Below, piece by piece: positions 9,206 to 44,372 of a stretch of DNA of 64,000 nt. The stretch spans positions 74,131 to 138,130 of the forward strand of contig CALIBQ010000012.1 of NCBI GenBank assembly GCA_938049385.1. Direction: 5' to 3'. The position numbers were made by a program, and so were the translations under genes. The notes under the pieces are model-generated. The model was not told where the DNA came from. It made no database searches and was given only the letters and a program-made list of their open reading frames with translations. Position 1 is the first letter of the stretch. The number at the start of each line of letters is the position of its first letter. Source of the stretch: an uncultured Anaerolineae bacterium. GTDB taxonomy: Bacteria > Chloroflexota > Anaerolineae > JACIWP01.

Positions 9206-9234
9206 TATCCTCCTCCTGGCAGAGGGAAGCACCC

Positions 9235-10866
9235 TCAGCGGATCTTGCGCGTGTAGTCGGGCAGGACCTGGGGCGAGGGCTTGGCGGTTTCCAGCAGGCC
9301 GGCCTGCGCCAACTGCTGGTTCCAGGCGCGCACATGCTCCAGGGTCAGCCGGCCCAGGCGCACCTCTTTCGCAAGCTGGCCGGCGGCGCGGCCGGCGCGC
9401 CGGCCGAACACCACCACGTCCAGCAGGGAATTGCCCATCAGGCGGTTGCGGCCGTGCACGCCGCCGGAGGCCTCGCCGGCGACGAACAGGCCCGGGATGC
9501 CGGTGAAGCCGTCCGGCCTGATGGCGACGCCGCCGTTCTGATAGTGCAGGGTTGGGTAGACCAGCATGGGTTCTTTGGTGATATCAATGCCAAAGCGGCC
9601 GAACTGGCGCACCATGGCCGGCAGTGCCCGGGCGATGGTACCCGGACCGTGAATCATGTCAATCATGGGGGAGTCCAGCCAGACGCCCACCATGCCGGTG
9701 GGGGTGCGTACCCCTTTGCCGCGTTCCACACACTCACGGATAATGGCGGAAGCCTCCACATCGCGCGTCTCGCGTGGGAAGACGAACTGCTCGCCGTCCA
9801 CATTCACCACTTGGGCGCCCAGGCCGCGCACCTTTTCCGTGACCAGCAGGCCCAGTATCTGCTCGGGGTACGCCGCGCCAGTGGGGTGATACTGCATGGT
9901 GTCGATGAAGGCCAGCCGCGCGCCGGCGCGGTAGGCCAGCACCAGCCCGTCGCCGGTAGCGCCGTGGTGATTCGTGGTCGGGTATCCCTGATAATGCAGG
10001 CGGCCGCTCCCGCCCGTGGCGATGATGGTCGCCTTGGCGCGCACCACCAGATGTTCGCCGGTCTCCAGGTTTTGGAGCACTGCGCCGGCGACTTGCCCTT
10101 TATCGTCCATCAACAGCTCGATGGCCGGCGAGAATTCCAGCACCGTGATGTCCTCGGGATGACTGCGCACCTCATCCCGCAGAGTGCGCATGATTTCCGC
10201 GCCCGAATAGTCGCGTGCCGAGTGCATGCGCTTGCGCGAGGTGCCGCCGCCGTGGATGGTGATCAGCGTCCCGTCCGGCTCTTTGTCGAACATGCACCCC
10301 AAGCTCTCCAGCCACTGGATGACCAATGGGGCGTCGCGCACCAGCGCCTCCACCAGGTCGGGGTCATTGACGAAATGGCCGCCGCCCATGACGTCCAAGT
10401 AGTGGATGGCCGGCGAGTCGTTCTCCTTGTCCGCCGCCTGGATGCCGCCCTGGGCCATCATGGTGTTGGCGTCGCCGTGGCGGAGTTTTGTGGCGATGAT
10501 GACCTTGGCGCCTTGCTCGCGCGCCAGCAGCGCGGCGGCGGAGCCGGCGCCGCCCCCACCGATGACGAGCACGTCGGTGTCATAATCCACCTGCTCCAGG
10601 TCCAGCTTGTCCGGATCGATCAGCGGCCGGCCTTCCAGCAGATCGGCCAGCTCGTGCGGCGTGCGGTCCCCTTTGTTAGGCCCGATGCGGATTTCGCGGA
10701 AGGCCGAGGCGATATAATCCGGGTGGAAGCGGCGCAGAATCTCCTCCTTCTCCTGGGGGGACATCATGGGGAAGGTCTCATGCAGGCGCGCCGGCCGGCT
10801 CGCTTCCACCTTCTTGATGGATTCTCGCATTTCGGGCGGATAGCCCATCTTGCCATCCCATTCCAT
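9235..10866 (-). CDS. Succinate dehydrogenase/fumarate reductase-family flavoprotein (SdhA/FrdA/TfrA-like) with ~95-aa N-terminal extension
   Basis: VLVIGGGGAGSAAA FAD dinucleotide fold, MQYHPTG, RNRLMGNSLLDVVVFGRRAG signatures of SdhA/FrdA flavoproteins. Confidence 0.85.
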   Translation of the reverse strand: MEWDGKMGYPPEMRESIKKVEASRPARLHETFPMMSPQEKEEILRRFHPDYIASAFREIRIGPNKGDRTPHELADLLEGRPLIDPDKLDLEQVDYDTDVLVIGGGGAGSAAALLAREQGAKVIIATKLRHGDANTMMAQGGIQAADKENDSPAIHYLDVMGGGHFVNDPDLVEALVRDAPLVIQWLESLGCMFDKEPDGTLITIHGGGTSRKRMHSARDYSGAEIMRTLRDEVRSHPEDITVLEFSPAIELLMDDKGQVAGAVLQNLETGEHLVVRAKATIIATGGSGRLHYQGYPTTNHHGATGDGLVLAYRAGARLAFIDTMQYHPTGAAYPEQILGLLVTEKVRGLGAQVVNVDGEQFVFPRETRDVEASAIIRECVERGKGVRTPTGMVGVWLDSPMIDMIHGPGTIARALPAMVRQFGRFGIDITKEPMLVYPTLHYQNGGVAIRPDGFTGIPGLFVAGEASGGVHGRNRLMGNSLLDVVVFGRRAGRAAGQLAKEVRLGRLTLEHVRAWNQQLAQAGLLETAKPSPQVLPDYTRKIR

Positions 10867-10890
10867 AGCGTAAGCTCCTCTCTGGAGGCC

Positions 10891-11571
10891 TTATTCAGGT
10901 TCAATATCGCGAGTGTTGTAGAGCTGGCGCAGTTCGGCGTTGGAAAGCGATTTTAGGCGCTGGATATCCTGGTCGTAGAGGCCGGCCTCGATCTCCTGCA
11001 CGCGCTTGGCCAGGTGCTGGGCGCGCGGGGCGATGTATCTGCCGTACAGCCGGCGGGCCAGGATGAAGATATTGTACTGCGCCTCCTCCGCCGGACAGCG
11101 CGAGACACACATGCCGCACATGATGCAGTCGAAGGATTTGTCGGCCACGCCGGCGATGTCCCCGCGCATGGCGCGCGCCATAATGTCTTTGACATCCAGC
11201 TCCTGCGGGCAGACCTTGGTGCAGGTCCCACAGCCAAGACAGCGCAGTAGCTCCGGATACAGCGAGACCAGCGTCCCAAAGGTGGGCTGTAGTTGGGTGA
11301 TATCGTACTGGGCGCGCGGGGCCGGGTAGAAGGGGATCTGCGCCAGGTACATCCCCGGCTCGACGACCGTCTGACAGGCCAGCCCGACGCGCAGGCGGTA
11401 ATCGCCGGCCAGGCGGTACACCGTGGCGCAGGCGCCGCAGAAGCCGGCGCGGCACCCCACGCCCCGCACCAGACGGTAGCCGGCATACTCCATTGCCTTC
11501 ATGATGGTCAGCCCGGGCGGGACATCATAGCGCTTGCCCATGATATAGACGGGAACCAGCTCCTCAGCCAT
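10891..11571 (-). CDS. SdhB/FrdB-like iron-sulfur subunit (2Fe-2S + 4Fe-4S ferredoxin domains)
   Basis: CRAGFCGAC (plant-type 2Fe-2S), CLGCGTCTKVCP and CIMCGMCVSRCP cluster motifs; GGGAGGAG RBS; stop overlaps the RBS of the next gene. Confidence 0.8.
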   Translation of the reverse strand: MAEELVPVYIMGKRYDVPPGLTIMKAMEYAGYRLVRGVGCRAGFCGACATVYRLAGDYRLRVGLACQTVVEPGMYLAQIPFYPAPRAQYDITQLQPTFGTLVSLYPELLRCLGCGTCTKVCPQELDVKDIMARAMRGDIAGVADKSFDCIMCGMCVSRCPAEEAQYNIFILARRLYGRYIAPRAQHLAKRVQEIEAGLYDQDIQRLKSLSNAELRQLYNTRDIEPE

Positions 11572-11595
11572 TCCAGCACTCCTCCCGAAGCTCGC

Positions 11596-12708
11596 TTATT
11601 TCCCCAAATCCGTCAGCTCATCCTCGCGAAAAGCGGCCAGCGGCAGTTCCTCTTCCAGACTGCGGCCGGCCTCATAGTTGAACAGCGCCTGCACCGACTG
11701 CGCCACCGAGCGGAACAAGGTCGCCACCGGCAGGCGGTTTGGACAGGCGCTCTCGCACAGCCCGCACCCCACACACGAAGTCGCCATGTGATTCAATCGG
11801 GTGATGTGGAACAGCAGTGTATCGGTGGGCATGCGGATGACGCCCCGGCGCTCCGCCCAGCGGAAGTACTGCTCCGGCTCATGGTCGAAGGTCGGGGTGC
11901 GGAAGATGCACTCCTTGCAGTAGCAGATGGGGCAGGCCACCATGCAGTTGTGACAGCGGATACAGGTGGCGAAGCGTTCGGCCAGCCGGCGTAAGTCCGG
12001 CACTTCCGTCCGCCAGGCGGCAAACGCAGTATCCCGCTCCGCAGTGCGCCGCGCCCGCACCTGTTCCAGGACCTCCTGCCGGCGCGCCGGCACATCCGCC
12101 GGCGGCAGTTCCACCGGCAGGGGCTCCTTGCTCTCCACCAGCACCTGCCGCGGGAAATCCAGCCCGATCAGGCCGATGCGGATGTCGGCGTTGGCCGCCG
12201 TCGGATATTCGCACATGCGGCAGGCACTGCGCAGGGCACAGCCGTCCGCCGGCAGTGCCTCCCCCTGGGCCGCGCCCCGCCACAGCTCCGCCGGCTGTTT
12301 GCCGGCACGCACCAGGGCGGCATAGTCCACCACCTCATAGGTGCCCAGGCAGTCCACCGCGATGGTGCGCACATGCTCCAGCGTGGCCTGATGCAGTTTG
12401 GTCAGCTCGATGAGGGCGCGCAGTTCGCAGGGGCGGAGCCAGACGCCCACTCGCCGGCCGGTGTCCATGACGGTCAGCCGGCCGGCCATGGTAGCCATAT
12501 TGTGGGACATCACCGGCGCCAGCGGCTCGCAGGCTTCCAGCGCCTCAGGCGATTCCACCAGCGCCGGCATAACTGCCTCGTCGCCGGCCAGCCGGCAGGG
12601 CACCAGCAGGGCATCCACATATCCCGAGGTCAGCAGTTCCGCCAGGAATTTCCGCAGGGCGCCGGCCGCGTCTTCCCCTTCTACGGGCAACCAGGCTTGT
12701 ATCGTCAT
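11596..12708 (-). CDS. Fe-S/flavin oxidoreductase, FrhB-like (coenzyme F420 hydrogenase/dehydrogenase beta-subunit family) with C-terminal 2x[4Fe-4S] ferredoxin domain
   Basis: C-terminal CIRCHNCMVACP and CVGCGLCESACP; N-terminal ~220 aa resemble the FrhB/FdhB/AsrA-type flavin-binding module (tentative). Confidence 0.6.
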   Translation of the reverse strand: MTIQAWLPVEGEDAAGALRKFLAELLTSGYVDALLVPCRLAGDEAVMPALVESPEALEACEPLAPVMSHNMATMAGRLTVMDTGRRVGVWLRPCELRALIELTKLHQATLEHVRTIAVDCLGTYEVVDYAALVRAGKQPAELWRGAAQGEALPADGCALRSACRMCEYPTAANADIRIGLIGLDFPRQVLVESKEPLPVELPPADVPARRQEVLEQVRARRTAERDTAFAAWRTEVPDLRRLAERFATCIRCHNCMVACPICYCKECIFRTPTFDHEPEQYFRWAERRGVIRMPTDTLLFHITRLNHMATSCVGCGLCESACPNRLPVATLFRSVAQSVQALFNYEAGRSLEEELPLAAFREDELTDLGK

Positions 12709-12739
12709 TGCTTTTCACAACCTCGATGTTCCTGTCCGT

Positions 12740-13162
12740 TCAGCTCATGGGCAGTTCGCGCATGGGGTTAGGACCCAGCCGGCGGAGGTGCTCCACCATC
12801 TCAGTAACTGTGTCGGCAAAGCGCTGGCCCTCGCTGGCGCTGATCCATCTCAGCCAGACCCGCTGGGGGTCAAAGCCCAGCCCGGCCAAAATGGTGTGCA
12901 AGATGGCGATGCGCCGGCGGGCCTTGTAGTTGCCGCTCTGATAGTGGCAGTCGCCGGGATGACACCCACCGATAAGCACCCCATCTGCGCCCTCCAGCAG
13001 GGCTTTGGAGACATAGACCGGGTCCAGGGCGCCGGTGCACATCAGCCGGATGACGCGCACGTTGGGCGGATACTGCAGGCGCGAGGTGCCGGCCAGGTCC
13101 GCCGCTGTGTAGGTGCACCAATTGCACAAGAATGCCACGATGCGCGGCTCAAAATCCGCCAT
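12740..13162 (-). CDS. mvhD: MvhD-like (methyl-viologen-reducing hydrogenase delta subunit family) Fe-S protein
   Basis: RIVAFLCNWCTY…RLMCTG…GGCHPGDCHYQSGN is the MvhD/FlpD signature; start chosen at MADFEPR (GGAGGGG RBS); the listed ORF extends to 13357. Confidence 0.75.
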   Translation of the reverse strand: MADFEPRIVAFLCNWCTYTAADLAGTSRLQYPPNVRVIRLMCTGALDPVYVSKALLEGADGVLIGGCHPGDCHYQSGNYKARRRIAILHTILAGLGFDPQRVWLRWISASEGQRFADTVTEMVEHLRRLGPNPMRELPMS

Positions 13163-13176
13163 ATCCCCTCCCCGGG

Positions 13177-13824
13177 TCAGGTTTCGCGAATATCCAGTAT
13201 CTTCAGCACCGCTGGCTGTAGGGCTTTCTCCAGCTCTTCGATGCCCACGTCTGCTACTTTCATCAGGATTTGTCGGGTCGCCGGGTCCTCGCCCATGAAC
13301 GTCCCCAGGCTGACGATGTTGCCGCCGACGCCGGCGATGATCTCGGCCAGCCGGCACAGTTCACCCTTCTGGTCCAGGATGAGCACCGCGGCGCGCACCC
13401 CATGCTCCCAACCGCCCAGCAGTTCCAGGAAGGTGCGGAACAGGTCGGTTTCGGTGATGATGCCGATAAGCTTGCCGATGTCGTCCACCACCGGCAGGCC
13501 GCCGATCTTATGCTGTACCATCAATCGCGCGGCCTCTTCAATGGTGTTGGACTCCCGCACGGTGATGACATCGCTGGTCATCACATCCTTCACGGTGATG
13601 CGCGTCAGCAGGTACTGCATCTCGTAAAGGCTCAGGGTGGTCGCCGGCGAGGGCGCGGCGTACAGCAAATCCTTTTCCGATACAATGCCGACAAGCCGGC
13701 CGTTCTCATCCACAATCGGCAGACGGCGCACTCGTTTCTCGCGCATCAACCGCAGTGCCTCCGGCAGAGGCAGGTCGGGCGAGACGGCCACAGGCTGGCG
13801 CGACATGCGTTCCGCGACTAGCAT
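13177..13824 (-). CDS. CBS-domain pair protein with C-terminal ACT-like domain
   Basis: Two CBS motifs (…RRLPIVDENGRLVGIVSEKDLL; …GGLPVVDDIGKLIGIITETDLF); tandem paralog of the next gene. Confidence 0.8.
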   Translation of the reverse strand: MLVAERMSRQPVAVSPDLPLPEALRLMREKRVRRLPIVDENGRLVGIVSEKDLLYAAPSPATTLSLYEMQYLLTRITVKDVMTSDVITVRESNTIEEAARLMVQHKIGGLPVVDDIGKLIGIITETDLFRTFLELLGGWEHGVRAAVLILDQKGELCRLAEIIAGVGGNIVSLGTFMGEDPATRQILMKVADVGIEELEKALQPAVLKILDIRET

Positions 13825-13829
13825 CTGTC

Positions 13830-14549
13830 TCACTCCTTTCCAGCCGGCTCGGCTTCGCCAGGGGCTTCGGCGCGGCCGACCGCTTCCGCCGGCGCGCACT
13901 CCCGGATGTCCAGCAGGACGAATCCCCGTTCCTGTACGGCCCGTTCGGCGATCGCCCGCACCTGCTCCAGCGGCACCTCGGCGATGCGCAGGGTGAGCTG
14001 GCGCGTGCCGGGCCGTGGGCCGTGAAACTCGCCGGCGCTGAGGATATTCCCGCCGGCGGCCGCAATGTGCCGGCAGAGATAGGCGATCAGGCCCTTTTCG
14101 TCGGGGATGAGCATGGAAAGCCGCACCGCCGGCACTGGGGTGTCCAGCACTTCCAGGAACACCCGGAAGATATCGGTCTCGGTGATAATGCCCACCAGCT
14201 CCCCCTGGCTGAGCACCGGCAGAGCGTCCAGCTTGTGCTCCACCATCAGCCGGGCCGCTTCTTCCAGCGGGGCGTCGGCGTCCACGGTGATGGGGTTTTC
14301 GGTCATGATGCTGGCGATTTTCACCTGGGCCAGTTGATACAGCATCTCATGCAGGGTGATGGCCGCGGTAGGGGAAGGCGACACCAGGAGCAGGTCGTGC
14401 TCGGCCACAAAGCCCACCAGCCTGCCGGCATAATCCTGGACCGGCAGGTGATGCACCCCTTTCTCATGCATGATGTAGAAGGCGTCCTCCACCGAGGCCG
14501 TCGGCAGGATGGTCACCGGGTTGGGTGTCATATAGTGACGGACTAACAT
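13830..14549 (-). CDS. CBS-domain pair protein with C-terminal ACT-like domain (tandem paralog)
   Basis: HHLPVQDYAGRLVGFVAEHDLL and DALPVLSQGELVGIITETDIF CBS motifs; overlaps the end of the giant HdrA gene. Confidence 0.8.
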   Translation of the reverse strand: MLVRHYMTPNPVTILPTASVEDAFYIMHEKGVHHLPVQDYAGRLVGFVAEHDLLLVSPSPTAAITLHEMLYQLAQVKIASIMTENPITVDADAPLEEAARLMVEHKLDALPVLSQGELVGIITETDIFRVFLEVLDTPVPAVRLSMLIPDEKGLIAYLCRHIAAAGGNILSAGEFHGPRPGTRQLTLRIAEVPLEQVRAIAERAVQERGFVLLDIRECAPAEAVGRAEAPGEAEPAGKE

Positions 14550-17500
14550 GGTTTCTCCTCCTGGCCCGGCGCTTCCCACAGGCTGTCCAGCGCGGCGTCA
14601 ATGACCTGAAGCAGAGCCGGCGTCTCGAACAGCCGCTGTTGGGACGCGCCGTTGGGGCATACCATGGCGCAGGTGCCACAGCCGGCACAGAAGGCCGCCC
14701 GCACCTCCGCCACGTGCCGTTCGACGTTCATGACCCTGGCCTCAAAGGGGCAGGCACGCACGCACAGCTCACAGCCGGAGCAGAGCCGTTCGTTCACAAC
14801 GGCCACGCTCTCGACCGCCGTGCGCCGGCGCTCCCGCTGGGCCAAATATGAGGCCGCATGCGCGGCCGCCGCCTGACCCTGCAGTATTGCCTCTTCGGCG
14901 AAGCAGGGCCCCAGCACCGCGCCGCAGGCGAACAATCCGGGCTTGCCCAGGCTCGATGGGCGCATTTTCGGGTGTTCGGGGATCAGGTAGCCGTCGGCAT
15001 GGACCTGAGCGCCCAGCCCAGCGAGCCAGGACGGCAAGGCCGCCGGCACTGCGCCGACGCTCAGCACGATGGTATCCGCCGGCAGGCGCACTGGCCGGCG
15101 CAGTAGGGCGTCGTGGACCTCGACCTCCAATCCATCAGCGCCGTGCCGGACCAAGGGCGGGTGCTCCGCCTCATAGCGGACAAAGCGCACGCCGGCCCGC
15201 CGTGCCGTCAAATATTCCAGCTCATGCCGGCCGAAGGCGCGCATGTCGCGGTACAGGATGGCCACCTGGCTGGCCGGCTGGACCTCTTTCAGCCGCAGGG
15301 CATTGCGCAGGGCCTGGGCACAGCATGTCCGACTGCAGTACGGCCGCTCCGCGGTGCGCGAATCCACGCACTGCACCATGACCACATGACCGAAGTTTTC
15401 GCCGGCCTCCAGCCGGCGCGCCAGCTCGTCCTGCGTCATCACCCGCGGATCTTGGCCACAGCCAAAGGCGGACGTAGGCGCCGGCCGACTGCCAAGGGCG
15501 GCTATCAGCGCGCCGGCGCGCACCTGCTCCCTTCCAGCGCACGTCTCCAGCTCCAGCAGGTACGTTTCATCGGGCTGGCGGGAGGCGCTGATGACAGTGG
15601 TGCGGGTCAGCACCCGCACGCCGGCCGTCTGCTCCAGCCTGGCGGTGCGCTCCGCCAGCCAGGCCGCCGGGTCCTCGCCGTCGAGCCTGCCAGCAAGCTC
15701 CCGCAGATGCCCGCCCAACTGCGGCGCCTGTTCGACCAGCAGGACGCGCAGACCCAGCTCCGCCACCGCCAGTGCCGCCGAGATGCCGGCCGGCCCGCCC
15801 CCCACCACGACGCAGTCCACGAAGTCCGCCGCTTCGGGCATGGGGACGGCCGGCAGGATGGAACGCGGTGAAATGGGCCGGCGCAGAAGGCCAGCCGCCG
15901 CCATGCGCACGCTGTCCCAAAGGCCGTTAGCGGAATGGGCTGTCAGGTCACAGCCGGCCGGCCAACCTGCCTCGAGGTCCACCAGCTCGACGGCAGAGTC
16001 CGGCAGGCCCAGGGCACGCAGGACCTGCCCAAGGTTTGCCTCCACAGCCGGCGAGAAGCGCAAAGGTGCATCCACGATGACCAGCCGGTTGAGGCCAGCT
16101 TCGCCGGCATGCCGAAGCAAGGCATCGCGGCCGGCCGGCGAGGCCAGCGGAGGAATGCGTTCCACCAGGGCAATACCTCTCAGCCGGCGCAAGCGCCGTT
16201 CCAAGTCCTCCAGGGGTGCGGCATACTGCCGGCCGGCGCCCCCCAGGAAAATGCCCAATCGCGGCGGCTCATCCTCCAGCCCCGGCCGCACCGGTGGAGC
16301 TTCTTCCGCGACCCCAGGGGCGGCCGGCACACACATCGCGGCCAAGGCCGCCGCGGCGCCGGCCTCCACCACGCTGTGGACAATGTCCTTCGGTTCGCGG
16401 AACGCGCCGGCGGCGAACACGCCCGGGCGCGAGCTTTCCGCCGGCCGAAGCGCGATCGTGCGTGCGAATCCCTGGGCATCCAGCTCTATGCCCAGCGCCT
16501 GGGCCAGTTCGGCGGCTTCCGCCGGCGGCCCGAATCCCACCGCCAGCACTGCCAGGTCGAAGGCTTCCTCGTGCCGCTGGCCGGCCTCGTCCCAATATTC
16601 GATGATGACATCCTTACTGCGCTGGGACTGTTTGATGGTGGAGACCTGACAGCGCACGTAGCGGATGCCGGGCGCGTGGATCCGGCCGGCCATGTAATAC
16701 TCATCCTCCCGGCCCTGGGCGCGCAGGTCTATGTAAAACACCATGCATTCCGCATCTGGCTCCAGTTCCCGGGCGGCCGCGGCCTGTTTGACGGTGATGG
16801 TACAGCAGATGGAGGAGCAGTACGGCCGGCCCAGGGCGGGGTCGCGCGAGCCGACACAGCTAATGAACGCCAGCCGGCGTGCCGGCCGCCCATCCGCTGG
16901 GCGCACCAGCCGGCCGCGCGTACTGCCCGAGAAGCTGATCATGCGCTCGAACTGGATGCTGGTCACCACATTGTCCAGCACCCCGAAGCCGTATTCCCCT
17001 TTACGCTCGGCGGGGAAAGGCTCGAAGCCCGGGGAGGCGATCACTGCGCCGGCGCGCAAAGTTAGGGTCTCGGCCGACATCTCCAGGTCAATGGCGCCCT
17101 CCGGACAAGCTTCCACACAGACGCCGCAGTGCGTGCAGAGCGCCGGATCAATGACGAAGGCGCGCGGCACTGCCCGCCAGGGCGGCCGATAAATGGCCTG
17201 GCGCGGGGCCAGAGTGCCCTCATCGAACGAGGGGCCAGAAACGGGGCAAACGGCCAGGCATTCCCCGCAGGCGGTGCACAGGGCTGGGTCCACATAGCGG
17301 GGAAGCCGGCGCAGGGCCAATCGGAAATCGCCAGTCTCGCCCTCCAGCGCGGTCACTTGGGTCAGCGGATAGATGGATAGCAGGGGACTGCGGGCGCTCT
17401 CCAGGGTGGGGCAGTACGTCGGCGAGAGGCCAGCCTCCATAAAGCACAGACCGCATGAATCGGTGGGGAAGGTGCGGTCCAGCAGATGGAATGAACCGCC

Positions 17501-17644
17501 GATCCAGGGAGCAGTATCGAGCAAAGCGACGCGCCGGCCCAGGCTGGTCAGCAGGAAGGCGGCCTGCATGCCGGCGATGCCGGCGCCGACGATGGCTACG
17601 TCCACGCGTTCTACCTCTTGCTCATCCCGAGCAGGCAAAGGCAT
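14543..17644 (-). CDS. hdrA: Giant tandem-HdrA fusion (two heterodisulfide reductase subunit A-like FAD/Fe-S modules in one polypeptide)
   Basis: Module 1: VAIVGAGIAGMQAA, CGLCF…YCP, CTACGECLAVCP, CTHCGVCVEACP, FISCVGSRD…YCSSICC. Pro/Ala-rich linker. Module 2: CVVVGGGPAGISAA, VQCVDSRTAERPYCSRTCC, CSGCELCVRACP, CAGCGTCAMVCP. ATG 17644 chosen (GGGGGA RBS); GTG at 17680 is also possible. Confidence 0.8.
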   Translation of the reverse strand: MPLPARDEQEVERVDVAIVGAGIAGMQAAFLLTSLGRRVALLDTAPWIGGSFHLLDRTFPTDSCGLCFMEAGLSPTYCPTLESARSPLLSIYPLTQVTALEGETGDFRLALRRLPRYVDPALCTACGECLAVCPVSGPSFDEGTLAPRQAIYRPPWRAVPRAFVIDPALCTHCGVCVEACPEGAIDLEMSAETLTLRAGAVIASPGFEPFPAERKGEYGFGVLDNVVTSIQFERMISFSGSTRGRLVRPADGRPARRLAFISCVGSRDPALGRPYCSSICCTITVKQAAAARELEPDAECMVFYIDLRAQGREDEYYMAGRIHAPGIRYVRCQVSTIKQSQRSKDVIIEYWDEAGQRHEEAFDLAVLAVGFGPPAEAAELAQALGIELDAQGFARTIALRPAESSRPGVFAAGAFREPKDIVHSVVEAGAAAALAAMCVPAAPGVAEEAPPVRPGLEDEPPRLGIFLGGAGRQYAAPLEDLERRLRRLRGIALVERIPPLASPAGRDALLRHAGEAGLNRLVIVDAPLRFSPAVEANLGQVLRALGLPDSAVELVDLEAGWPAGCDLTAHSANGLWDSVRMAAAGLLRRPISPRSILPAVPMPEAADFVDCVVVGGGPAGISAALAVAELGLRVLLVEQAPQLGGHLRELAGRLDGEDPAAWLAERTARLEQTAGVRVLTRTTVISASRQPDETYLLELETCAGREQVRAGALIAALGSRPAPTSAFGCGQDPRVMTQDELARRLEAGENFGHVVMVQCVDSRTAERPYCSRTCCAQALRNALRLKEVQPASQVAILYRDMRAFGRHELEYLTARRAGVRFVRYEAEHPPLVRHGADGLEVEVHDALLRRPVRLPADTIVLSVGAVPAALPSWLAGLGAQVHADGYLIPEHPKMRPSSLGKPGLFACGAVLGPCFAEEAILQGQAAAAHAASYLAQRERRRTAVESVAVVNERLCSGCELCVRACPFEARVMNVERHVAEVRAAFCAGCGTCAMVCPNGASQQRLFETPALLQVIDAALDSLWEAPGQEEKPC

Positions 17645-17669
17645 TTCGATGATTCCCCCGACTGTCGGC

Positions 17670-18233
17670 TCAGAACTCACCGCGGTGGTCGGTGAGGTAC
17701 ATCACCAGCACCGCCATATCATACGTCTCCCCGTCATGCGTGATGAAATAATCGCGGTGCTGGTACTCCAGCTTGAAGCCCATTTCCTCGAAGGCGCGGA
17801 TGACCTTGGGCTGGGTGACCGCCACCTCCGCGATGACCTGCTGAAGCCCCATCATACGGGCGATATCGATTTGGGAGCGGATCATGGCGGTGCCGATGCC
17901 GCGCCGGCGGAACTCTTTGTCGAGATAAATATGGATCCAGGCAATGTGCCGTGTGTAATTTTCCCCCACGAATAATGTGGACAGCCCCACAATGCGCTCA
18001 TTCACCAGCGCGATGAGGGGAAAGGTGCGGGAATAATTGATGTTTTTGCACCACTGCGTGATGGAATCGGGCGTGGAAATATCAAAGCGGAAATATTCCT
18101 TGTCCTCCGGGCTGACGCGCGATAGCAAATCCACCAGCTTCTCGGCATCGTTGGCCATCAGCGGGCGGAAGAGCACCCGCGGCCCATCCTTCAGGATTTC
18201 GATGTGGCGGTAGTTCAACAATCGGTCTAACAT
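17670..18233 (-). CDS. GNAT-family N-acetyltransferase embedded in the hdr operon
   Basis: RRRGIGTAMIR acetyl-CoA binding motif; GGGGAGG RBS before ATG 18233. Confidence 0.8.
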   Translation of the reverse strand: MLDRLLNYRHIEILKDGPRVLFRPLMANDAEKLVDLLSRVSPEDKEYFRFDISTPDSITQWCKNINYSRTFPLIALVNERIVGLSTLFVGENYTRHIAWIHIYLDKEFRRRGIGTAMIRSQIDIARMMGLQQVIAEVAVTQPKVIRAFEEMGFKLEYQHRDYFITHDGETYDMAVLVMYLTDHRGEF

Positions 18234-18331
18234 GTCTGCCTCCCCTGGCCTCTTCATGCTCTGCCGTGGTATGACGCCTTCGCCGCGTTGTGCAAATTAT
18301 ACTGCGAGACAGGCAGGGCGCAACTCCCCCG

Positions 18332-19195
18332 TTATGATAACAACCCCAGCCGGCGCAGAAGGGGGCGCGGGTCCACGATGTGCCGGCCAAATAGGCCAGT
18401 CACTTCATCCAATCCCAGCGCCAGGCCCAGCAGTTCCGTAACGTAAAAGACTGGCATTGGCTGGGGACGTCGGCCCTGCCGGCCGTCCAGGTTCGCCTGG
18501 CAGAGGGGGCAGGCGGTCACGATGCAGTTGGCGCCGGCGTCCTCCGCCGCGCTGACCAGCCGGCCCACCAACCGCGCCACAATGTCCCCCCGGTTCAGGG
18601 TCATGCTGGCCCCGCAACAGTCCGTGGCATAGGTCCAGCGGCTTGGTTCCGCCCCCAGCAGTTCCAGCAGGCGGTCCAGCTTGACCGGGTGCTCGGTGTC
18701 GTCCCACGCGCCGGCGATCTGCGGCGGACGCAGGAGCAGACAGCCGTAGTAGCTCACCGGGCGCAGGCCAGTCAGCGGTTTGCGCAGATGGGCGCGTAGT
18801 TCCTCCGGCGGGAAATCGGAGGTCAGGATATCGAGCAGGGCGCGCGGCCTGGCCTGGCCGGCGTACTCCCTGCCGATGACCTGTTCCATCTGCTGGCGGA
18901 AGGCCTCATCCTCCCGCAGGCGGCGGTCGGCGCTGGAGAGTCGGCCGTAGCAGGCGGCGCAGGGGATGGCAATATCGCGGCCCAGCGGCTGTGCCAGCAG
19001 GATGTTGCGTGCCGGCAGGGCATCCGCCAGCTCCCCGCCCAGGCTGTGCGCGGACGAAGCCCCACAGCAATTCCAATCCTCGATCTCGACCAGTTCCACC
19101 CCCAGCGCCCGGCACACGGCCCGCGTGGAGACGCCGTACTCCAGACCGGTGGAGTGCAGGGTACAGCCAGGGTAGAAGGCATAGGAGCGGCTCAT
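18332..19195 (-). CDS. hdrB: Heterodisulfide reductase subunit B-like (two CCG domains), copy 2
   Basis: CCG-domain cysteine patterns (FYPGCTL, WNCCGAS, AACYGRL, YYGCLL, DCCGAS, ACPLCQ). Confidence 0.85.
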   Translation of the reverse strand: MSRSYAFYPGCTLHSTGLEYGVSTRAVCRALGVELVEIEDWNCCGASSAHSLGGELADALPARNILLAQPLGRDIAIPCAACYGRLSSADRRLREDEAFRQQMEQVIGREYAGQARPRALLDILTSDFPPEELRAHLRKPLTGLRPVSYYGCLLLRPPQIAGAWDDTEHPVKLDRLLELLGAEPSRWTYATDCCGASMTLNRGDIVARLVGRLVSAAEDAGANCIVTACPLCQANLDGRQGRRPQPMPVFYVTELLGLALGLDEVTGLFGRHIVDPRPLLRRLGLLS

Positions 19196-19758
19196 TCTCG
19201 CCCCTCCGGTGTTTCAGCGGCATGGGCGCCGGCGGCCTCGAACAGGCGTGCGATCTCCTGCCGGCGGCGGATAACTTGAGGGAGCGGCGGCAGTTTGCGC
19301 GCCAGCAGGAGCCGGGCACCCAGGTCCAAGTTGGACAGCAGGTCGAGGGAGCGCAGTTTGTACTCCACGATCATGGTGATCTCGTGCACCCGGCCGAAGC
19401 GCCGCAGGTTGTTCAGGAAGGCGCGGTGGAATTGGTATATCGCCGGCGCGCCCACCCGTACCCCTTCCTCCGCCGCCATCTGGCGCAGGGCGTCGTTGAT
19501 GCGCCCCACACAAATCCCGTTGGGACAGCGGGTGCCGCAGGTCTCGCACCCGACGCACATCCAGATGGCCTGGCTGGAAAGGAGCGCACGGCGTTCGCCC
19601 ATCTGCACCATATGCACGATTTGCGCCGGGTCATAGTCCATGACGAAGGCGGTGGGACAGCCGGCAGTGCACTTGCGGCACTGGTAGCATGTCGCGATGG
19701 GCTGACCGCTCCGCTCCGCCACGATGTCCATGAAGCGCCAATCTATCGGACTGCTCAT
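19192..19758 (-). CDS. hdrC: Heterodisulfide reductase subunit C-like (2x[4Fe-4S]), copy 2
   Basis: CYQCRKCTAGCP and CVGCETCGTRCP; ATGA start/stop overlap with the upstream hdrA. Confidence 0.8.
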   Translation of the reverse strand: MSSPIDWRFMDIVAERSGQPIATCYQCRKCTAGCPTAFVMDYDPAQIVHMVQMGERRALLSSQAIWMCVGCETCGTRCPNGICVGRINDALRQMAAEEGVRVGAPAIYQFHRAFLNNLRRFGRVHEITMIVEYKLRSLDLLSNLDLGARLLLARKLPPLPQVIRRRQEIARLFEAAGAHAAETPEGRE

Positions 19759-21512
19759 GCGCCCTCCTGCGCCTTCGCCGGCGCGAACAGCACATCCACC
19801 ATGGCGAGCACCTGTTCGGGGGTGTAGTTGCGCAGTTTGCTGGCCTTGTTCGGGCAGACCGTGGCGCAGGCACCGCATCCCTGGCACAGCGCGGCGTTGA
19901 CCGTCACCAGGGGCTTCCAGGGATGGGGCCGGCGGGCCTCGTAGGGACAGGCCGGCACGCAGAGCTGGCAGGCGGAGCACAGCTCCGGGTCTACCCAGGC
20001 GATGGTCGGCTCCTGCACCAGTTCATGGCGCGAGAAGAGGGAGAGCACCTTGGCGGCAGCCGCGCTGGCCTGGGAGAGGGTTTCGGGAATATCCTTCGGG
20101 CCCTGTGCCGCGCCGGCCAGGTAAATGCCGGCGGTCAGGCTCTCCACCGGCCGCAGTTTGGGATGCGCCTCATTGAAAAAGCCGTGCGCATCGGTGCCCA
20201 CCCGCAGGCGCTGGGCCAGGTCACGCGCATCTGCTCGCGGCACCACCGCCGTCGCCAGCACCACCAGGTCCGCGGCGATCTCCACCTGCTGGCCGCTCAA
20301 TGTATCGGCTCCCCAGACGATGACCTTATCGCCGTCGCGGAATATCTTTGATACCTTGCCGCGCAGGTACAGCACGCGCTCCTCTTCCATAGCGGCCTGG
20401 ACGAATTCCTCGGCGCCCTTGCCGCCGGAGCGGATGTCAATATAGAAGACATAGGCCTGGCCGTCAGGAGACTGCCGGCAGAACAGCCGCGCCTGCTTGG
20501 CGGTGTACATACAGCATATCTTGGAGCAGTAGGGCATGGCGTGTTCGGGGTCGCGCGAGCCGGCACACTGCACGAAAACCACCTCTTTGGGCGGCCGGCC
20601 GTCGGAGGGCCGCAGTACCCGCCCACCGGTGGGGCCATCTGGACGCAGGAGAGCCTCCATCTCCAGGCCGGAGATGACGTCGGGGACAGCGCCGGCGCCG
20701 TACTCGGGGAGCTGTTTCATGGGATACAGGTCGAAGCCGGTGGCCACGACGATGGCGCCGACGCTTGCCTCCTGCACCTGGTCCTCGCCCCGCCGGCGGA
20801 TGCGCACCGTGAAGTTCCCCACGTAGCCGTTGAGCGATTCCACCTCGCTCTCTGTCAGGACGGTGATCTCGGGGCGTGCGCGCAAGGCATCCAGCTTCTG
20901 CGCCAGCAGGTCGCCGGCCGATTCGAAATTGAGATAGGTGCCGGAGAGCTGGGCCATGCGTCCGCCCAGTTGCGCCTCGCGCTCCACCAGCAGGACGGGG
21001 AAGCCGGCTTCGGCGATGTCCAGCGCCGCCTGGATGCCGGCAATGCCCCCGCCGATAACCAGGGCACGGCGCACCACCGGCAGGGTGAATGGGAGCAGTT
21101 CCTCATCGTAGCGCACCTTCTCGATGATGGTGCGGATGACCTCGATAGCCTTGCGGGTGGCGGCGTCCGGGTCCTTGGCGTGCACCCAGGAGACCTGCTC
21201 GCGGATGTTGGCGATCTCGACGCGATAGGGGTTCAGGCCGGCGCTCTCGGCGTTGCGCCGGAAGGTGGCCTCGTGCATGGTGGGGGAACAGGCGGCCACG
21301 ACGATGCCGTCCAGCTTCTCCTCGGCGATCTTGCGGCGGATCAGCTCCTGTCCCGGTTCGGAGCACATGTACTTGTAGTCCAGGGCCACCAGCACCGCCG
21401 GCGCATCCTTGAACGCGTCCAGCACCTGCGGGATGTCCACGGTGCCGGCGATGTTCAGACCGCAGTGGCAGACGAACAGACCGATACGGTGGGCCTTAGT
21501 TTTCGCCGGCAT
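19755..21512 (-). CDS. hdrA: Heterodisulfide reductase subunit A-like, full-length (N-terminal CHCG Cys domain + FAD + ferredoxin domains)
   Basis: N-terminal RIGLFVCHCGLNIAG; GGGIAGIQAA; VQCAGSRDPEHAMPYCSKICC; CSACQLCVPACP and CQGCGACATVCP. Confidence 0.85.
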   Translation of the reverse strand: MPAKTKAHRIGLFVCHCGLNIAGTVDIPQVLDAFKDAPAVLVALDYKYMCSEPGQELIRRKIAEEKLDGIVVAACSPTMHEATFRRNAESAGLNPYRVEIANIREQVSWVHAKDPDAATRKAIEVIRTIIEKVRYDEELLPFTLPVVRRALVIGGGIAGIQAALDIAEAGFPVLLVEREAQLGGRMAQLSGTYLNFESAGDLLAQKLDALRARPEITVLTESEVESLNGYVGNFTVRIRRRGEDQVQEASVGAIVVATGFDLYPMKQLPEYGAGAVPDVISGLEMEALLRPDGPTGGRVLRPSDGRPPKEVVFVQCAGSRDPEHAMPYCSKICCMYTAKQARLFCRQSPDGQAYVFYIDIRSGGKGAEEFVQAAMEEERVLYLRGKVSKIFRDGDKVIVWGADTLSGQQVEIAADLVVLATAVVPRADARDLAQRLRVGTDAHGFFNEAHPKLRPVESLTAGIYLAGAAQGPKDIPETLSQASAAAAKVLSLFSRHELVQEPTIAWVDPELCSACQLCVPACPYEARRPHPWKPLVTVNAALCQGCGACATVCPNKASKLRNYTPEQVLAMVDVLFAPAKAQEGA

Positions 21513-22848: not shown

Positions 22849-23747
22849 GGGGCTTTCACCTCTCCCAGAACGCCGGCCTGCGTCAGCACCGGTCGGGGGT
22901 CCACATAATGCTGTTCGAAGCCGTAGCCGCTGGTGTCCAGGCCGAAGGCCAGGCCCATCAACTGGGTGAAGTACAGCACCGGCAGGGGTCGATACGAGGC
23001 ATACTGCTGGCGCAGGCGGGCCTGGAGCCAGTCCAGGTTGAACTGGCACAGCGGGCAGGCGGTGGCAAGCACATGCGCGCCGGCCCGCTCTGCGGCCGAA
23101 AGGATGCGGTACGACATGGGCATGGAGGCCTCAGGGGACTTCACCGTCAGGTATGCCCCACAGCACTCGCCGCGATGGGGGTAGTCCACCACCTCGGCGC
23201 CCAGCGCCGCCAGGAGCTGGTCCATGATGTCCGGGCGCTCCGGGTCATCCAGGGCGATCTCGGCCGCCGGCCGCAGGAGCATACATCCGTAATAGGCGGC
23301 CGCACGCAGACCCCGCAGGCCCGGCACGGCGCACTGTCGGATGGCTTCCAGGCCGATATCATGCACGAAAATGTCCAGCAGATGCCGCACCTCGACCTGG
23401 CCGGCATACGGCTGGGGCCGCTCCAGGAAGGCGTTCAATTTTTCCAGCGTCTCAGGGTTATTGCGGAGGAAGTGGTTGGTGCGGCGCAGGACGTTGAAGC
23501 AGGTGGCACAGGCCACAGCCAGGGTATCGCCGCCGGCCTCGGCCGTGCTGACCAGGTTGCGCGCCGGGCCGGCCAGGTCCAGCACGTTGTCGGTGGAGAG
23601 GGGGAAGGTCGCCCCACAGCAGTTCCATTCGGGCAGGGTGACCAGCTCCACCCCCAGCGCGCCGGCGGCATCCTTCGCGGAGCGGTTGAAGCCCACCGCC
23701 TTGGTCTCCAGCGTACAGCCGGGAAAGTAGAAATAGCGCATCTTCAC
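22845..23747 (-). CDS. hdrB: Heterodisulfide reductase subunit B-like (two CCG domains), copy 1
   Basis: FPGCTL, WNCCGAT, ACATCF, YYGCML, ECCGAY, ACPLCQ; ATGA overlap with the downstream hdrA. Confidence 0.85.
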   Translation of the reverse strand: MKMRYFYFPGCTLETKAVGFNRSAKDAAGALGVELVTLPEWNCCGATFPLSTDNVLDLAGPARNLVSTAEAGGDTLAVACATCFNVLRRTNHFLRNNPETLEKLNAFLERPQPYAGQVEVRHLLDIFVHDIGLEAIRQCAVPGLRGLRAAAYYGCMLLRPAAEIALDDPERPDIMDQLLAALGAEVVDYPHRGECCGAYLTVKSPEASMPMSYRILSAAERAGAHVLATACPLCQFNLDWLQARLRQQYASYRPLPVLYFTQLMGLAFGLDTSGYGFEQHYVDPRPVLTQAGVLGEVKAP

Positions 23748-23777
23748 GCTCCAGTGCGTGTAATGATCTGCTCGGCG

Positions 23778-24185: not shown

Positions 24186-24188
24186 GGG

Positions 24189-24785
24189 TTACACCTTCTG
24201 CAGGAGTTTGCGGTACTTTTCCCGCTCCGCAACATAGGCATCGCCGCCGTAGATGTCGTTGATGACAATAGCCGGGAAGTCCACCACTGTCAGTTCTTGG
24301 ATCGCCTCCGGCCCCAGGTCTTCATAGGCGATGACGCGGGCGGCGACGATACTGCGGGAGATGAGCGCGCCGGCGCCGCCGGTAGCGGCGAAGTAGACGC
24401 ACTGATAGCGCTTCATCGCCTCGATGACCTCGGGGGCACGTTCCCCTTTGCCGATCATGCCCTTGATGCCGGCGGCCATCAGGCGCGGGGCATAGGCGTC
24501 CATGCGGTAGCTGGTGGTGGGGCCGGCGGAACCAATGGGGCGGCCGGGCTTGGCCGGCGAAGGGCCCATATAATAAACGACCTGGCCGGCGGGGTCAAAG
24601 GGAAGCGGTTCGCCGCGTTCCAGGGCCTCGACCATGCGCTTGTGCGCCGCGTCGCGCGCCACATAAATGATGCCGTTGATGAGAACCTTGTCGCCGGCGC
24701 GCAGGGGCGTGATCTGCTCCAGGGTGAGGGGTGTAGTCAGGCGAATTCCTGTCTTTTCCATGACCGTGTTCCTTTCGTCGCTCAC
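24189..24785 (-). CDS. Class I fumarate hydratase beta subunit (Fe-S hydro-lyase, tartrate/fumarate family, beta region)
   Basis: 198 aa with the FumA C-terminal/TtdB-like catalytic domain (IKGMIGKGER, ATGGAGAL). Confidence 0.8.
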   Translation of the reverse strand: MSDERNTVMEKTGIRLTTPLTLEQITPLRAGDKVLINGIIYVARDAAHKRMVEALERGEPLPFDPAGQVVYYMGPSPAKPGRPIGSAGPTTSYRMDAYAPRLMAAGIKGMIGKGERAPEVIEAMKRYQCVYFAATGGAGALISRSIVAARVIAYEDLGPEAIQELTVVDFPAIVINDIYGGDAYVAEREKYRKLLQKV

Positions 24786-25627
24786 AAGATAGCTTCTTTA
24801 TGGCGCGCCGCATGGCACTGGATGTTCACCGCCACCGGCATGCTGGCCAGGTGGCATGGATGGGTCTCCACATGCACGGCCAAGGCCGTTGTACGGCCGC
24901 CCAATCCCTGCGGGCCGATGCCGGTGCGGTTGATGCGCTCCAGCAGTTCCCGCTCCAGGTCTGCCACCTCTGGCTCTGGATGGTGTTCGCCCACTGGGCG
25001 GAGCAGGGCGTGTTTCGCCAGCGCCATGGCCTTATCGGCGCTCCCGCCGATGCCAACCCCGACGATGATAGGCGGGCAGGGGTTGGCGCCGGCCTTTTCC
25101 ACGCTTGCCACGACGAAGTCCACGATGCCCTGCCGGCCGGCCGCCGGCGGCATCATCGAGAGGAAGCTCATGTTCTCACTGCCGCCGCCCTTGGGCAGGA
25201 CGATCAGCTTGAGCTGGTCTCCGGGAACAAGCCGCACGTGGATCACTGCCGGCGTGTTATCGCGGGTGTTCTTGCGCGCCCCAAAAGGCGGGTACACCAT
25301 GGACTTACGCAGATAGCCCTCGGTATAGCCCTGACGCACCCCCTCATTGACGGCATCCTCAAACGCACCACCAACAATATGTACATCCTGACCCACTTCA
25401 GCGAAGACCACGGTCAGGCCAGTGTCCTGACAGATGGGGACCTCCTCCTGTCGGGCAATGGCGGCGTTCTCCAGGATTTGGTCGAGGATTTCCCGCCCCA
25501 GCGGTGAAATCTCCTGTTCGCGAGCCTTCTGCAGGGCTTGGACAACGTCCTCTCCCAGGAAGTAATTGGCCTCCATGCAGAGGCGCTTGACCGTCTGTAC
25601 GATGTCTTGAAAGGAGATCTCTTTCAT
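24782..25627 (-). CDS. Class I fumarate hydratase alpha subunit (Fe-S hydro-lyase alpha region)
   Basis: FumA N-terminal/TtdA-like domain with cluster cysteines (…PICQDTG…, …NPCPP…, …QCH…); start chosen at MKEISFQ; first gene of the long minus-strand operon. Confidence 0.8.
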   Translation of the reverse strand: MKEISFQDIVQTVKRLCMEANYFLGEDVVQALQKAREQEISPLGREILDQILENAAIARQEEVPICQDTGLTVVFAEVGQDVHIVGGAFEDAVNEGVRQGYTEGYLRKSMVYPPFGARKNTRDNTPAVIHVRLVPGDQLKLIVLPKGGGSENMSFLSMMPPAAGRQGIVDFVVASVEKAGANPCPPIIVGVGIGGSADKAMALAKHALLRPVGEHHPEPEVADLERELLERINRTGIGPQGLGGRTTALAVHVETHPCHLASMPVAVNIQCHAARHKEAIL

Positions 25628-25694
25628 GGATGGCGTCCTCCCGCCTGCGTATGTAGGATGTGGTACCTGCTCTGCCCTAGGGGGAATAAAACAA

Positions 25695-25758
25695 CAGGAC
25701 ACGTTTGGTCAGACTGCCGGCGCAGTTGGCGGCCGGTCTCCCACGCAAACGTGTCCTG
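25695..25758. promoter_or_regulatory. 13-bp perfect inverted repeat CAGGACACGTTTG-N38-CAAACGTGTCCTG in the leader/promoter region of the fum-hdr-sdh operon
   Basis: Seen directly in sequence, 70-130 nt upstream of the fumarase-alpha start on the minus strand. Confidence 0.35.

Positions 25759-42530: not shown

Positions 42531-44372
<1,842 letters not shown>

Follow-up and report, generated by a model that had tools for sequence, protein, structure and literature searches.

Subunit A of heterodisulfide reductase (HdrA) is found in the canonical complexes MvhAGD-HdrABC, Fdh-Hdr and Elp-Hdr (5ODC, 7BKB and 8RVU) as a homodimer with two equivalent electron paths, yet fused forms of the protein have also been described. 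HdrA homologues of more than 1000 amino acids (aa) from anaerobic methanotrophic archaea (ANME) are fusions of two HdrA genes, and tandem gene pairs follow the same logic (Chadwick et al. 2022, PMC9012536). In these ANME proteins the N-terminal domain (N-domain) and Cys197 are distributed in a complementary manner, and the fused chain was read as “its own heterodimeric partner”. Type II HdrA joins an HdrA class that has neither N-domain nor C-terminal ferredoxin to another class, and the number of clusters varies (PMC12054007). Duplicated HdrA fusions occur across Asgard and TACK archaea (PMC11237513). Here we describe a fused double hdrA gene at 14543-17680 on the minus strand of a 64,000-nucleotide stretch of DNA (the window) from an uncultured Anaerolineae bacterium of the Chloroflexota (assembly GCA_938049385.1, contig CALIBQ010000012.1).

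The most detailed template is BamE of the class II benzoyl-CoA reductase of Geobacter metallireducens, a “fused HdrA dimer” by cryo-electron microscopy (bioRxiv 10.64898/2026.04.10.717634). In BamE each core binds flavin adenine dinucleotide (FAD) close to a [4Fe-4S] cluster. The flavin of core 1 bifurcates and has Lys280 at its N5; that of core 2, with Gln768, was taken to be structural. The MvhD-like BamF delivers electrons to the C-terminal ferredoxin clusters. The cluster of core 1 passes the high-potential electron on to the HdrBC-like BamD, and the low-potential electron departs through E3, a cluster of the N-domain type, and the clusters of the inserted ferredoxin, past Cys59-Cys62 (10.64898/2026.04.10.717634). 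A 2024 bioRxiv preprint on HdrA evolution holds nothing on fusions.

Compared with these systems, the fused HdrA of the window is a bacterial member of an already published design, and the protein alone is confirmatory rather than surprising. We consider it fairly probable that it is, like archaeal type II HdrA and BamE, an intrinsically asymmetric pseudo-heterodimer. The candidate for novelty may instead be the conserved cluster of about 14 genes in which it lies, a description of which in Chloroflexota was not found in the literature searched.

Architecture and distribution of the fused HdrA

Judged from alignments, the gene encodes two HdrA-type FAD/[4Fe-4S] cores in one chain, whose halves are complementary rather than complete. 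The best Protein Data Bank (PDB) matches of the product are HdrA chains (8rvu, 8rvv and 5odc, E 1e-109 to 1e-113), to which both halves align. The NCBIfam scores stay under the equivalog cut-offs for HdrA2 (577.6 bits vs 1100) and HdrA (420 vs 1400). Residue numbering counts from GTG 17680 (1045 aa) unless stated from M13, and the parts of the chain are as follows.

14543..17680, minus strand: fused double-HdrA gene (open reading frame (ORF) with at least 120 full-length homologues, 42-89% identity, 95-99% coverage)
16331..17608, minus strand: module 1, aa 25-450, thioredoxin reductase (TrxR)-like FAD core 1 with inserted ferredoxin domain (aligns to 8rvu 154-578 and 5odc 147-574)
17396..17470, minus strand: FPTDSC76GLC79...YC90P loop, aa 71-95 (its CxxC corresponds to HdrA C194/C197 and BamE C59/C62)
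17081..17299, minus strand: inserted 2x[4Fe-4S] ferredoxin domain of module 1, aa 128-200 (two CxxCxxCxxxCP motifs; Pfam Fer4_7 at 135-196; aligns to the inserted domain of 8rvu)
16787..16858, minus strand: TrxR1 [4Fe-4S] site C275-x-G-S-R-D...Y-C288-S-x-x-C292-C293, then K298 (5odc C386/C399/C403/C404/K409)
16265..16330, minus strand: Pro/Ala-rich linker, aa 451-472 (read from the sequence)
15881..16264, minus strand: cysteine-less HdrA N-domain fold of module 2, aa 473-600 (aligns to 5odc 2-101 and 8rvu 11-109)
14831..15829, minus strand: TrxR-like FAD core 2 of module 2, aa 618-950 (own [4Fe-4S] site C771/782/786/787; aligns to 5odc 371-574)
14636..14809, minus strand: C-terminal 2x[4Fe-4S] ferredoxin domain, aa 958-1015 (eight invariant cysteines; Pfam Fer4_10/Fer4_21; aligns to the C-terminal ferredoxin of 8rvu and 5odc)

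A first-pass annotation of this DNA had proposed two complete HdrA modules in a single polypeptide, joined by a Pro/Ala-rich linker and both without the N-terminal CHCG cysteine domain. The single polypeptide with two HdrA-like cores was borne out by an uninterrupted ORF of 1045 codons with two GxGxxG FAD folds (aa 32-37 and aa 627-632, the glycines being invariant or nearly so in the family), two CxxSR...YCSxxCC sites and two pairs of CxxCxxCxxxCP motifs (aa 135-192 in module 1, aa 967-1008 in module 2). The modules are not complete, however. Module 1, which shows 34-36% identity to canonical HdrA chains and a Foldseek template modelling (TM) score of 0.90 to 8rwn_A, is without an N-domain and without a C-terminal ferredoxin when aligned to 8rvu and 5odc. 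Module 2 spans aa 473-1015 and combines an N-domain fold, a core and the C-terminal ferredoxin. When aa 471-1045 were searched alone, aa 473-573 matched 5odc 2-101; the alignment skipped HdrA 190-370, comprising the FPTLDCxxC motif and the inserted ferredoxin, and resumed at 5odc 371-647 including the C-terminal ferredoxin. The inserted ferredoxin is therefore confined to module 1 and the C-terminal one to module 2, which also lacks FPTxxCxxC.

The proposed linker is real as a stretch of sequence, and aa 451-472 are the least conserved part of the chain (0.41 in the family alignment, with 21% gaps), with a predicted local distance difference test (pLDDT) score of 69-80. The connector nevertheless also holds a folded, degenerate N-domain (aa 473-600). 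A simple linker between two complete HdrAs is ruled out, as module 2 aligns to HdrA from its N-terminal domain. The statement that neither half has a CHCG domain is right as to the cysteines, which are replaced by G/A/A/A, and wrong as to the domain, the fold of which is present.

Because the accessory domains are split between the modules, only one full path can be assembled. By its domain content each chain would bind two FAD, and beside a single canonical HdrA electron path it has a spare FAD core. Identity between the cores is about 30%, and the chain holds ligands for six complete four-cysteine [4Fe-4S] sites, while most family members have seven.

An AlphaFold2 model, calculated from a 72-sequence alignment, covers the whole 1045-residue chain with a mean pLDDT of 86.3 and a predicted TM score (pTM) of 0.87. 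Low-confidence regions are restricted to aa 1-19, aa 1037-1045, the C76-C95 loop (pLDDT 56-77), the linker and aa 574-582. The segment aa 473-600 is predicted to adopt a beta-alpha-beta fold (pLDDT mostly 75-95). The top Foldseek matches of the model are HdrA chains (8rwn_A, E 9e-45, TM 0.90 over 435 columns), followed by 6tjr, an HdrA-like protein from a sulfur oxidiser. With its high pTM, the model speaks for halves held in a fixed arrangement, and their geometry is putatively that of a pseudo-dimer.

Among the described systems, ANME HdrA3/4 and type II HdrA share with the fused HdrA the fusion of two HdrA classes, one of them without N-domain and C-terminal ferredoxin, and the complementarity of N-domain and Cys197; likewise, they cluster with genes for FdhB-like F420 dehydrogenases. 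In ANME HdrA3/4 the N-domain lies in the N-terminal unit and Cys197 in the C-terminal unit, whereas this order is reversed here. Unlike the archaeal fusions, the fused HdrA is bacterial (Chloroflexota), has lost the N-domain cysteines and has a fumarate reductase (Frd)-like flavoprotein as arm partner instead of a degenerate molybdopterin subunit. Split HdrA pairs, i.e., ANME HdrA5/6 and 12/13 or the hdrAa/hdrAb pair of the window described below, divide the labour in the same way between separate polypeptides. The canonical HdrAs have the same folds and the same cluster motif, and their E356/K409 and C194/C197 pairs are found in module 1. The canonical homodimer, however, has 12 clusters and two equivalent paths vs six sites and one path in the fused chain, and each of its protomers carries both an inserted and a C-terminal ferredoxin, where each module here carries one.

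BamE is similar in having two TrxR cores with FAD and [4Fe-4S] each, of which core 1 bears the CxxC pair and the N5 lysine and core 2 a residue other than lysine (R792 here), as well as an inserted and a C-terminal ferredoxin, an MvhD-like adaptor and HdrBC-like partners. Counted from M13, C64/C67/K286/R780 of the fused HdrA and C59/C62/K280/Q768 of BamE are collinear within 5-12 residues, a comparison of four published numbers and not an alignment. In contrast, BamE holds seven clusters including E3, where the fused HdrA has ligands for six. The Chloroflexota cluster contains neither a BamBC tungsten module nor BamGHI; its arm is FdhB/ElpB-like and Frd-like, and HdrB and HdrC are separate proteins, whereas they are fused in BamD.

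The reading frame itself extends over 1045 codons from GTG 17680 without an internal stop. The true start is probably ATG 17644, yielding a protein of 1033 aa, because M13 encoded there is kept in at least 90% of the homologues, an 83%-identical gene (metagenome-assembled genome (MAG) RSWS7, the relative L001) begins at the equivalent ATG, and the motif GGGGGA lies upstream. GTG 17680 overlaps the stop of the preceding GNAT gene. Since long spurious antisense ORFs abound in the window, ORF length alone is no proof, and homology decides. The G+C content of the window is 61-68%, and ORFs of 409-802 aa run antisense to real genes at 22908-25316 (+), 9334-10956 (+) and 12398-13627 (+), as expected at about 65% G+C.

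The first-pass annotation had called the fusion unusual and had suggested a search for homologous fusions in related genomes. At least 120 full-length Chloroflexota homologues were found. The 120 best matches in a database clustered at 90% are 989-1086 aa long and are covered to 95-99%; where named, their sources are Anaerolineae, Anaerolineales, Thermoflexales or Chloroflexota MAGs, and the named homologues are annotated as “heterodisulfide reductase subunit A” or “FAD-dependent oxidoreductase”. A library at 50% identity gave 1567 matches at E <= 1e-30, and among the 149 best representatives of these, 135 carry two C[SAT]xxCC core motifs, at a median length of 1016 aa. The fusion is thus common, and it is also published (PMC9012536, PMC12054007, PMC11237513, BamE). 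Some representatives (P0138, P0135 and P0231) extend the double-core scaffold: a form of about 1300-1530 aa, to which P0138 (about 1500 aa) belongs, bears a GltD/NfnB-like insertion of about 450 aa in the first ferredoxin region, and P0231 has a C-terminal MvhD domain. These variants resemble HdrL and the ANME HdrA9-11 types.

An assembly or frameshift artefact joining two neighbouring hdrA paralogues might be considered, as the split hdrAa/hdrAb pair with the same complementarity lies only 2 kb away and its two genes overlap by 17 nucleotides. Yet the ORF is uninterrupted, the fused modules are just 33-39% identical to the split pair and hence not a chimera of it, and besides the two-core relatives counted above, homologues of 82-89% identity occur in independent assemblies (P0002; P0003 with 16 member sequences; MAG RSWS7). 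Misassembly or frameshift is ruled out by these full-length homologues, and the probability that we would assign to an artefact is negligible. As far as sequence comparison goes, the fused double HdrA is neither rare nor an assembly artefact.

Flavin sites of the two modules

Conservation was assessed in a family alignment of the fused HdrA and 119 homologues (120 sequences). Invariant in all 120 are C76, C79 and C90, the 16 ferredoxin cysteines (eight per domain), the core ligands C275/288/292/293 and C771/782/786/787, and K298. By alignment, E245/K298 of module 1 correspond to E356/K409 of 5odc, and this Glu/Lys pair is kept in 119 of the 120 sequences. A Glu/Lys pair at the flavin N5 has been named as a signature of bifurcation (PMC12054007). 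At the equivalent positions module 2 has A754/R792, and just 51 of the 120 homologues have E/K there. A second FAD is likely bound by module 2, because its dinucleotide-binding glycines and acidic residue (G627/G629/G632/E650/G656/G657) are invariant; the site would not be of the bifurcating type.

These residues bear on the view, taken in the first-pass annotation and suggested for archaeal type II HdrA (PMC12054007), that the chain consists of two complete and equivalent HdrA units, each able to bifurcate. Both cores keep the dinucleotide-binding motifs and the four-cysteine cluster site, Glu/Lys persists in module 2 of the 51 sequences, and the archaeal survey reports both key residues in both cores (PMC12054007). 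Module 2 of the fused HdrA, however, has Ala754/Arg792 and is without the CxxC pair and the inserted ferredoxin; module 1 is without N-domain and C-terminal ferredoxin, which leaves one full path; and the second FAD of BamE is not at the branch point (10.64898/2026.04.10.717634). Equivalence of the two units therefore appears improbable. The asymmetric pseudo-heterodimer, which we favour, agrees with another part of the first-pass annotation, namely that a covalently fused pseudo-dimer would fix the stoichiometry and allow asymmetric halves: the cores share about 30% identity, their domains are complementary, the Glu/Lys pair is present in module 1 only, and the pTM is 0.87.

Just after the CxxC pair, the family has a specific insertion, which contains the invariant Cys90 as well as position 95, a cysteine in 99 of the 120 sequences and a serine here. 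The pattern C-x2-C-x10-C-x4-C (aa 76-95, 17396-17455) could provide an extra metal or cluster site; in the model, no part of module 1 has lower confidence than this loop.

The gene cluster and its fumarate reductase-like arm

The genomic context was compared across six loci, i.e., the window and the related loci L001, L002, L004, L005 and L006, the fused HdrAs of which are 43-83% identical. From its head, the cluster of the window (9235-25702, minus strand) comprises the following genes in addition to the fused hdrA; thyX, listed last, lies beyond it.

24189..25702, minus strand: putative class I fumarate hydratase alpha and beta, cluster head (ORFs; Fumerase/Fumerase_C genes at this position in L004 and L006)
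23778-24185, minus strand: putative hdrC1, small, 135 aa (a ferredoxin-like gene of 134-135 aa at this position in L002, L004, L005 and L006)
22845-23747, minus strand: hdrB1 (CCG domains and HdrB match)
21496-22848, minus strand: hdrAa, module 1-like, without N-domain, with FPTLDCAQC and inserted ferredoxin (translation, Pfam/NCBIfam)
19755-21512, minus strand: hdrAb, module 2-like, with CHCG N-domain and C-terminal ferredoxin, without inserted ferredoxin
19192-19758, minus strand: hdrC2 (HdrC/HdrB NCBIfam and Pfam CCG matches)
18332-19195, minus strand: hdrB2 (HdrC/HdrB NCBIfam and Pfam CCG matches)
17670-18257, minus strand: GNAT acetyltransferase, between hdrB2 and the fused hdrA
13177..14579, minus strand: two CBS-pair proteins, encoded between the fused hdrA and mvhD, the second bearing an ACT domain (Pfam CBS, TTHA0829-like ACT)
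12740..13162, minus strand: mvhD, MvhD/FlpD-type adaptor of about 140 aa from ATG 13162 (Pfam FlpD, E 1.9e-53; NCBIfam VhuD and HdrA2 C-terminal domain)
11596..12708, minus strand: FdhB/ElpB-like Fe-S subunit, 370 aa (full-length match to 8rvu_E ElpB, 14-356 vs 19-372, E 2.7e-21; also 9t1s_M and 7bkb_E FdhB)
10891-11571, minus strand: SdhB/TfrB-N-like Fe-S protein, 226 aa
9235-10866, minus strand: Frd/Sdh/NadB-family flavoprotein, SdhA/FrdA/TfrA-like, 543 aa (PDB SdhA/FrdA/NadB, E 1e-50 to 1e-71)
8585-9232, minus strand: thyX

All six loci hold hdrCB, the fused hdrA, mvhD, the FdhB-like gene, the Fe-S protein and the Frd-like flavoprotein, and five of them also hold the CBS genes. The gene order from hdrC1 to the flavoprotein recurs in L002, L004 and L006, which are 43-51% identical, and in the close relative L001. 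The hdrC2B2 genes are found at the same position in all five related loci, and the fumarase stands at the cluster head in L004 and L006. In all related loci the mvhD product has 140-142 aa; the L006 orthologue of the 370-aa subunit shows a weak FrhB_FdhB_C match. The CBS genes are kept in L001, L002, L004 and L006, and the GNAT gene in L001, L005 and L006; both may be metabolite-sensing or regulatory parts. L005, an Anaerolineae MAG, is rearranged (at 21655-23021 and 13113-17310): a second fused hdrA (1032 aa) follows the Frd-like gene, an extra hdrA pair and an HdrD-like gene lie between the fused hdrA and mvhD, and the cluster adjoins folD and a gene for a pterin-binding methyltransferase.

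Each half of the fused chain has a collinear counterpart among the split genes (BLASTP): module 1 is 39% identical to hdrAa over 418 aa, and module 2 is 33% identical to hdrAb over 428 aa. As read from these domains, the cluster encodes two asymmetric HdrA dimers, one of them split and the other fused. Unlike the fused chain, the hdrAa/hdrAb pair has the lysine in both units and keeps the N-domain cysteines. The C-terminal core halves of hdrAa and hdrAb are 68% identical over 259 aa vs 30% for the fused halves, which suggests recent gene conversion or duplication.

The arm that ElpB and FdhB form docks on HdrA jointly with MvhD/ElpC (PMC12350162). The 370-aa subunit is homologous to ElpB/FdhB, the F420H2-oxidising FAD subunit of Hdr donor arms, and is found here beside an Frd-like module rather than beside FdhA/ElpA. 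The best NCBIfam match of the 543-aa flavoprotein is TfrA (358.6 bits vs a cut-off of 718); an N-terminal extension of about 90 aa is without a match. The histidine that binds FAD covalently in Escherichia coli FrdA (“SHT”) is replaced by asparagine (“ANT”), and its FAD is thus predicted to be non-covalent. Blaut and colleagues reportedly found in 1989 that E. coli FrdA H44 variants without the covalent link lose succinate oxidation and keep fumarate reduction. Given the predicted non-covalent FAD and a fumarase encoded in the operon, a fumarate reductase acting as an electron sink is the most likely end of the arm.

The composition of the cluster also bears on the idea that the protein is the BamE orthologue of a class II benzoyl-CoA reductase. 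The two proteins share the same fused architecture, and their landmark residues are collinear. In place of Bam partners, however, the cluster carries the fumarase, the Frd-like flavoprotein and the FdhB-like subunit; the AOR-type tungsten protein BamB, BamC and NuoEF/HydBC-like BamGHI were not found among the cluster genes of the window and the five related loci. Gene context speaks against this role in benzoyl-CoA reduction, and orthology of this sort is very improbable. An asymmetric core of the BamE kind with partners of its own is the reading that we retain.

Soluble fumarate reductase flavoproteins that are genetically tied to Hdr-type subunits, as in this cluster, are known from two other settings. 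For Ca. Endoriftia persephone, a bifurcating complex of FrdAB and Flx-Hdr was proposed, without proof, according to the account of Rubin-Blum 2019 given in PMC13147460; this was also the only HdrA-linked bifurcating fumarate reductase that the literature search returned. It comprises an NADH-oxidising Flx module and an ordinary HdrA. In methanogen TfrAB, TfrB fuses SdhB-like and HdrB-like parts, and the enzyme needs no HdrA. Neither the Endoriftia complex nor TfrAB was shown to contain a fused HdrA.

Two further elements of the window lie outside the cluster. A glmS ribozyme (Rfam RF00234, 48.5 bits) at 44416-44645 (-) stands directly upstream of a glmS-like gene at 42531-44372 (GATase and SIS domains), and an MttB-family methyltransferase homologue is encoded in this bacterial, non-methanogen context at 30745-32199 (+) (Pfam MTTB, E 8e-97).

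N-domain cysteine loss and the direction of electron flow

By analogy to HdrA and BamE, the FAD of module 1 would be the sole branching flavin, either bifurcating or confurcating. Via the C-terminal ferredoxin of module 2 it would be linked to MvhD, the adaptor encoded nearby, and to the FdhB/ElpB-like arm; the [4Fe-4S] cluster of module 1 would lead to HdrC2B2, and the inserted ferredoxin domain would serve as the low-potential port. The FAD and cluster of module 2 might be mainly structural or act as a relay. The first-pass annotation had seen in the gene the electron-entry module of the operon, which is imprecise: by the same analogy, the fused HdrA would be the branching core, and entry or exit would take place via MvhD and the FdhB/ElpB-like arm. 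Judged from the gene cluster, a soluble complex may have the fused HdrA as its core and the fumarate reductase-type flavoprotein at the end of its MvhD arm. Since that flavoprotein would carry non-covalent FAD, electrons would most likely flow toward fumarate. With lower confidence, the gene context suggests that the complex links fumarate reduction to an HdrBC-type thiol/disulfide or other couple and, in most family members, to ferredoxin.

The N-domain cysteine columns 480/482/513/538 hold cysteine in 110/90/87/91 of the 120 sequences, and all four together in 87. In the fused HdrA the four columns read G/A/A/A, as they do in the closest relatives P0002 and P0003. Of the four cysteines, no more than one remains in P0004-P0008 (50-58% identical), and two further groups (16 sequences; CHLY or CHFY) keep the first only. 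A search of the clade for compensating cysteines gave no motif, but only the scattered, clade-restricted C312, C577, C926 and C1045. The equivalent of Cys197 (C79) is present in module 1 despite the loss of the N-domain ligands, and in the clade without the N-domain cluster the CxxC pair, E245/K298 and the eight inserted-ferredoxin cysteines all persist. In sequences with the N-domain cysteines, module 2 has E/K in 48 of 87, and in those without them in 3 of 33; this co-loss may reflect shared ancestry rather than functional coupling.

Because the lost N-domain cluster is the first low-potential relay in HdrA and BamE, the ferredoxin branch is probably weakened or rewired in the clade of the fused HdrA. 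Either the low-potential branch has been rewired, or the clade runs a simpler, non-bifurcating reaction of the thiol:fumarate type. In the latter case the chain would be a scaffold that wires HdrC2B2 to the MvhD/FdhB-like/fumarate reductase arm, and the whole an extended thiol:fumarate reductase-like enzyme with a vestigial ferredoxin branch. The loss of all N-domain ligands in the fused HdrA, P0002 and P0003, and of at least three of them in P0004-P0008 and the 16 sequences, is consistent with such a scaffold, as are the loss of the residues of flavin-based electron bifurcation from module 2 and the structural relationship to the HdrA-like protein of sulfur oxidisers (6tjr). Moreover, electron flow from thiol to fumarate is exergonic without ferredoxin, as in methanogen TfrAB. 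Yet E245, K298, the CxxC pair and the eight inserted-ferredoxin cysteines are invariant in the very clade that lacks the cluster, which speaks for continued selection on the branch point and the low-potential port. A pure scaffold is therefore rather unlikely.

A branching pseudo-heterodimer can be extended to the cluster as a whole. Tentatively, the cluster might encode a soluble supercomplex, in which the split and the fused asymmetric HdrA dimers couple fumarate reduction to ferredoxin and thiol/disulfide. Such an assembly would amount to a fumarate reductase of the Hdr type, bifurcating or confurcating, with a high-potential acceptor on the MvhD arm, and the clade of the window would be a variant without the first low-potential relay. 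Three observations weigh against a branching enzyme of this kind. With all four N-domain cysteines absent there is no relay cluster of the low-potential branch, and bifurcation may not operate here. The flavoprotein scores under the TfrA and Frd family cut-offs, and its fold and catalytic core are common to L-aspartate oxidase. Finally, the MvhD arm is the donor arm in canonical Hdr complexes, and a high-potential acceptor such as fumarate at this place is without structural precedent.

At least one enzyme of extreme reducing power, BamE, has the fused double HdrA as its branching core, and archaeal fused HdrAs have been proposed to run the electron flow of methane oxidisers in reverse. The protein of the window belongs to a large, apparently undescribed bacterial branch, in which a strongly conserved operon ends in a fumarate reductase-like enzyme. 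With and without the N-domain cluster, and with and without the Glu/Lys pair of the second core, the family provides natural contrasts for the question of which parts of the HdrA path bifurcation needs; if the cluster does encode the supercomplex, the clade of the window would give a built-in comparison for the function of the low-potential branch. Should its genes act together, the operon would account for the way in which quinone-independent anaerobic Chloroflexota dump electrons on fumarate without wasting energy.

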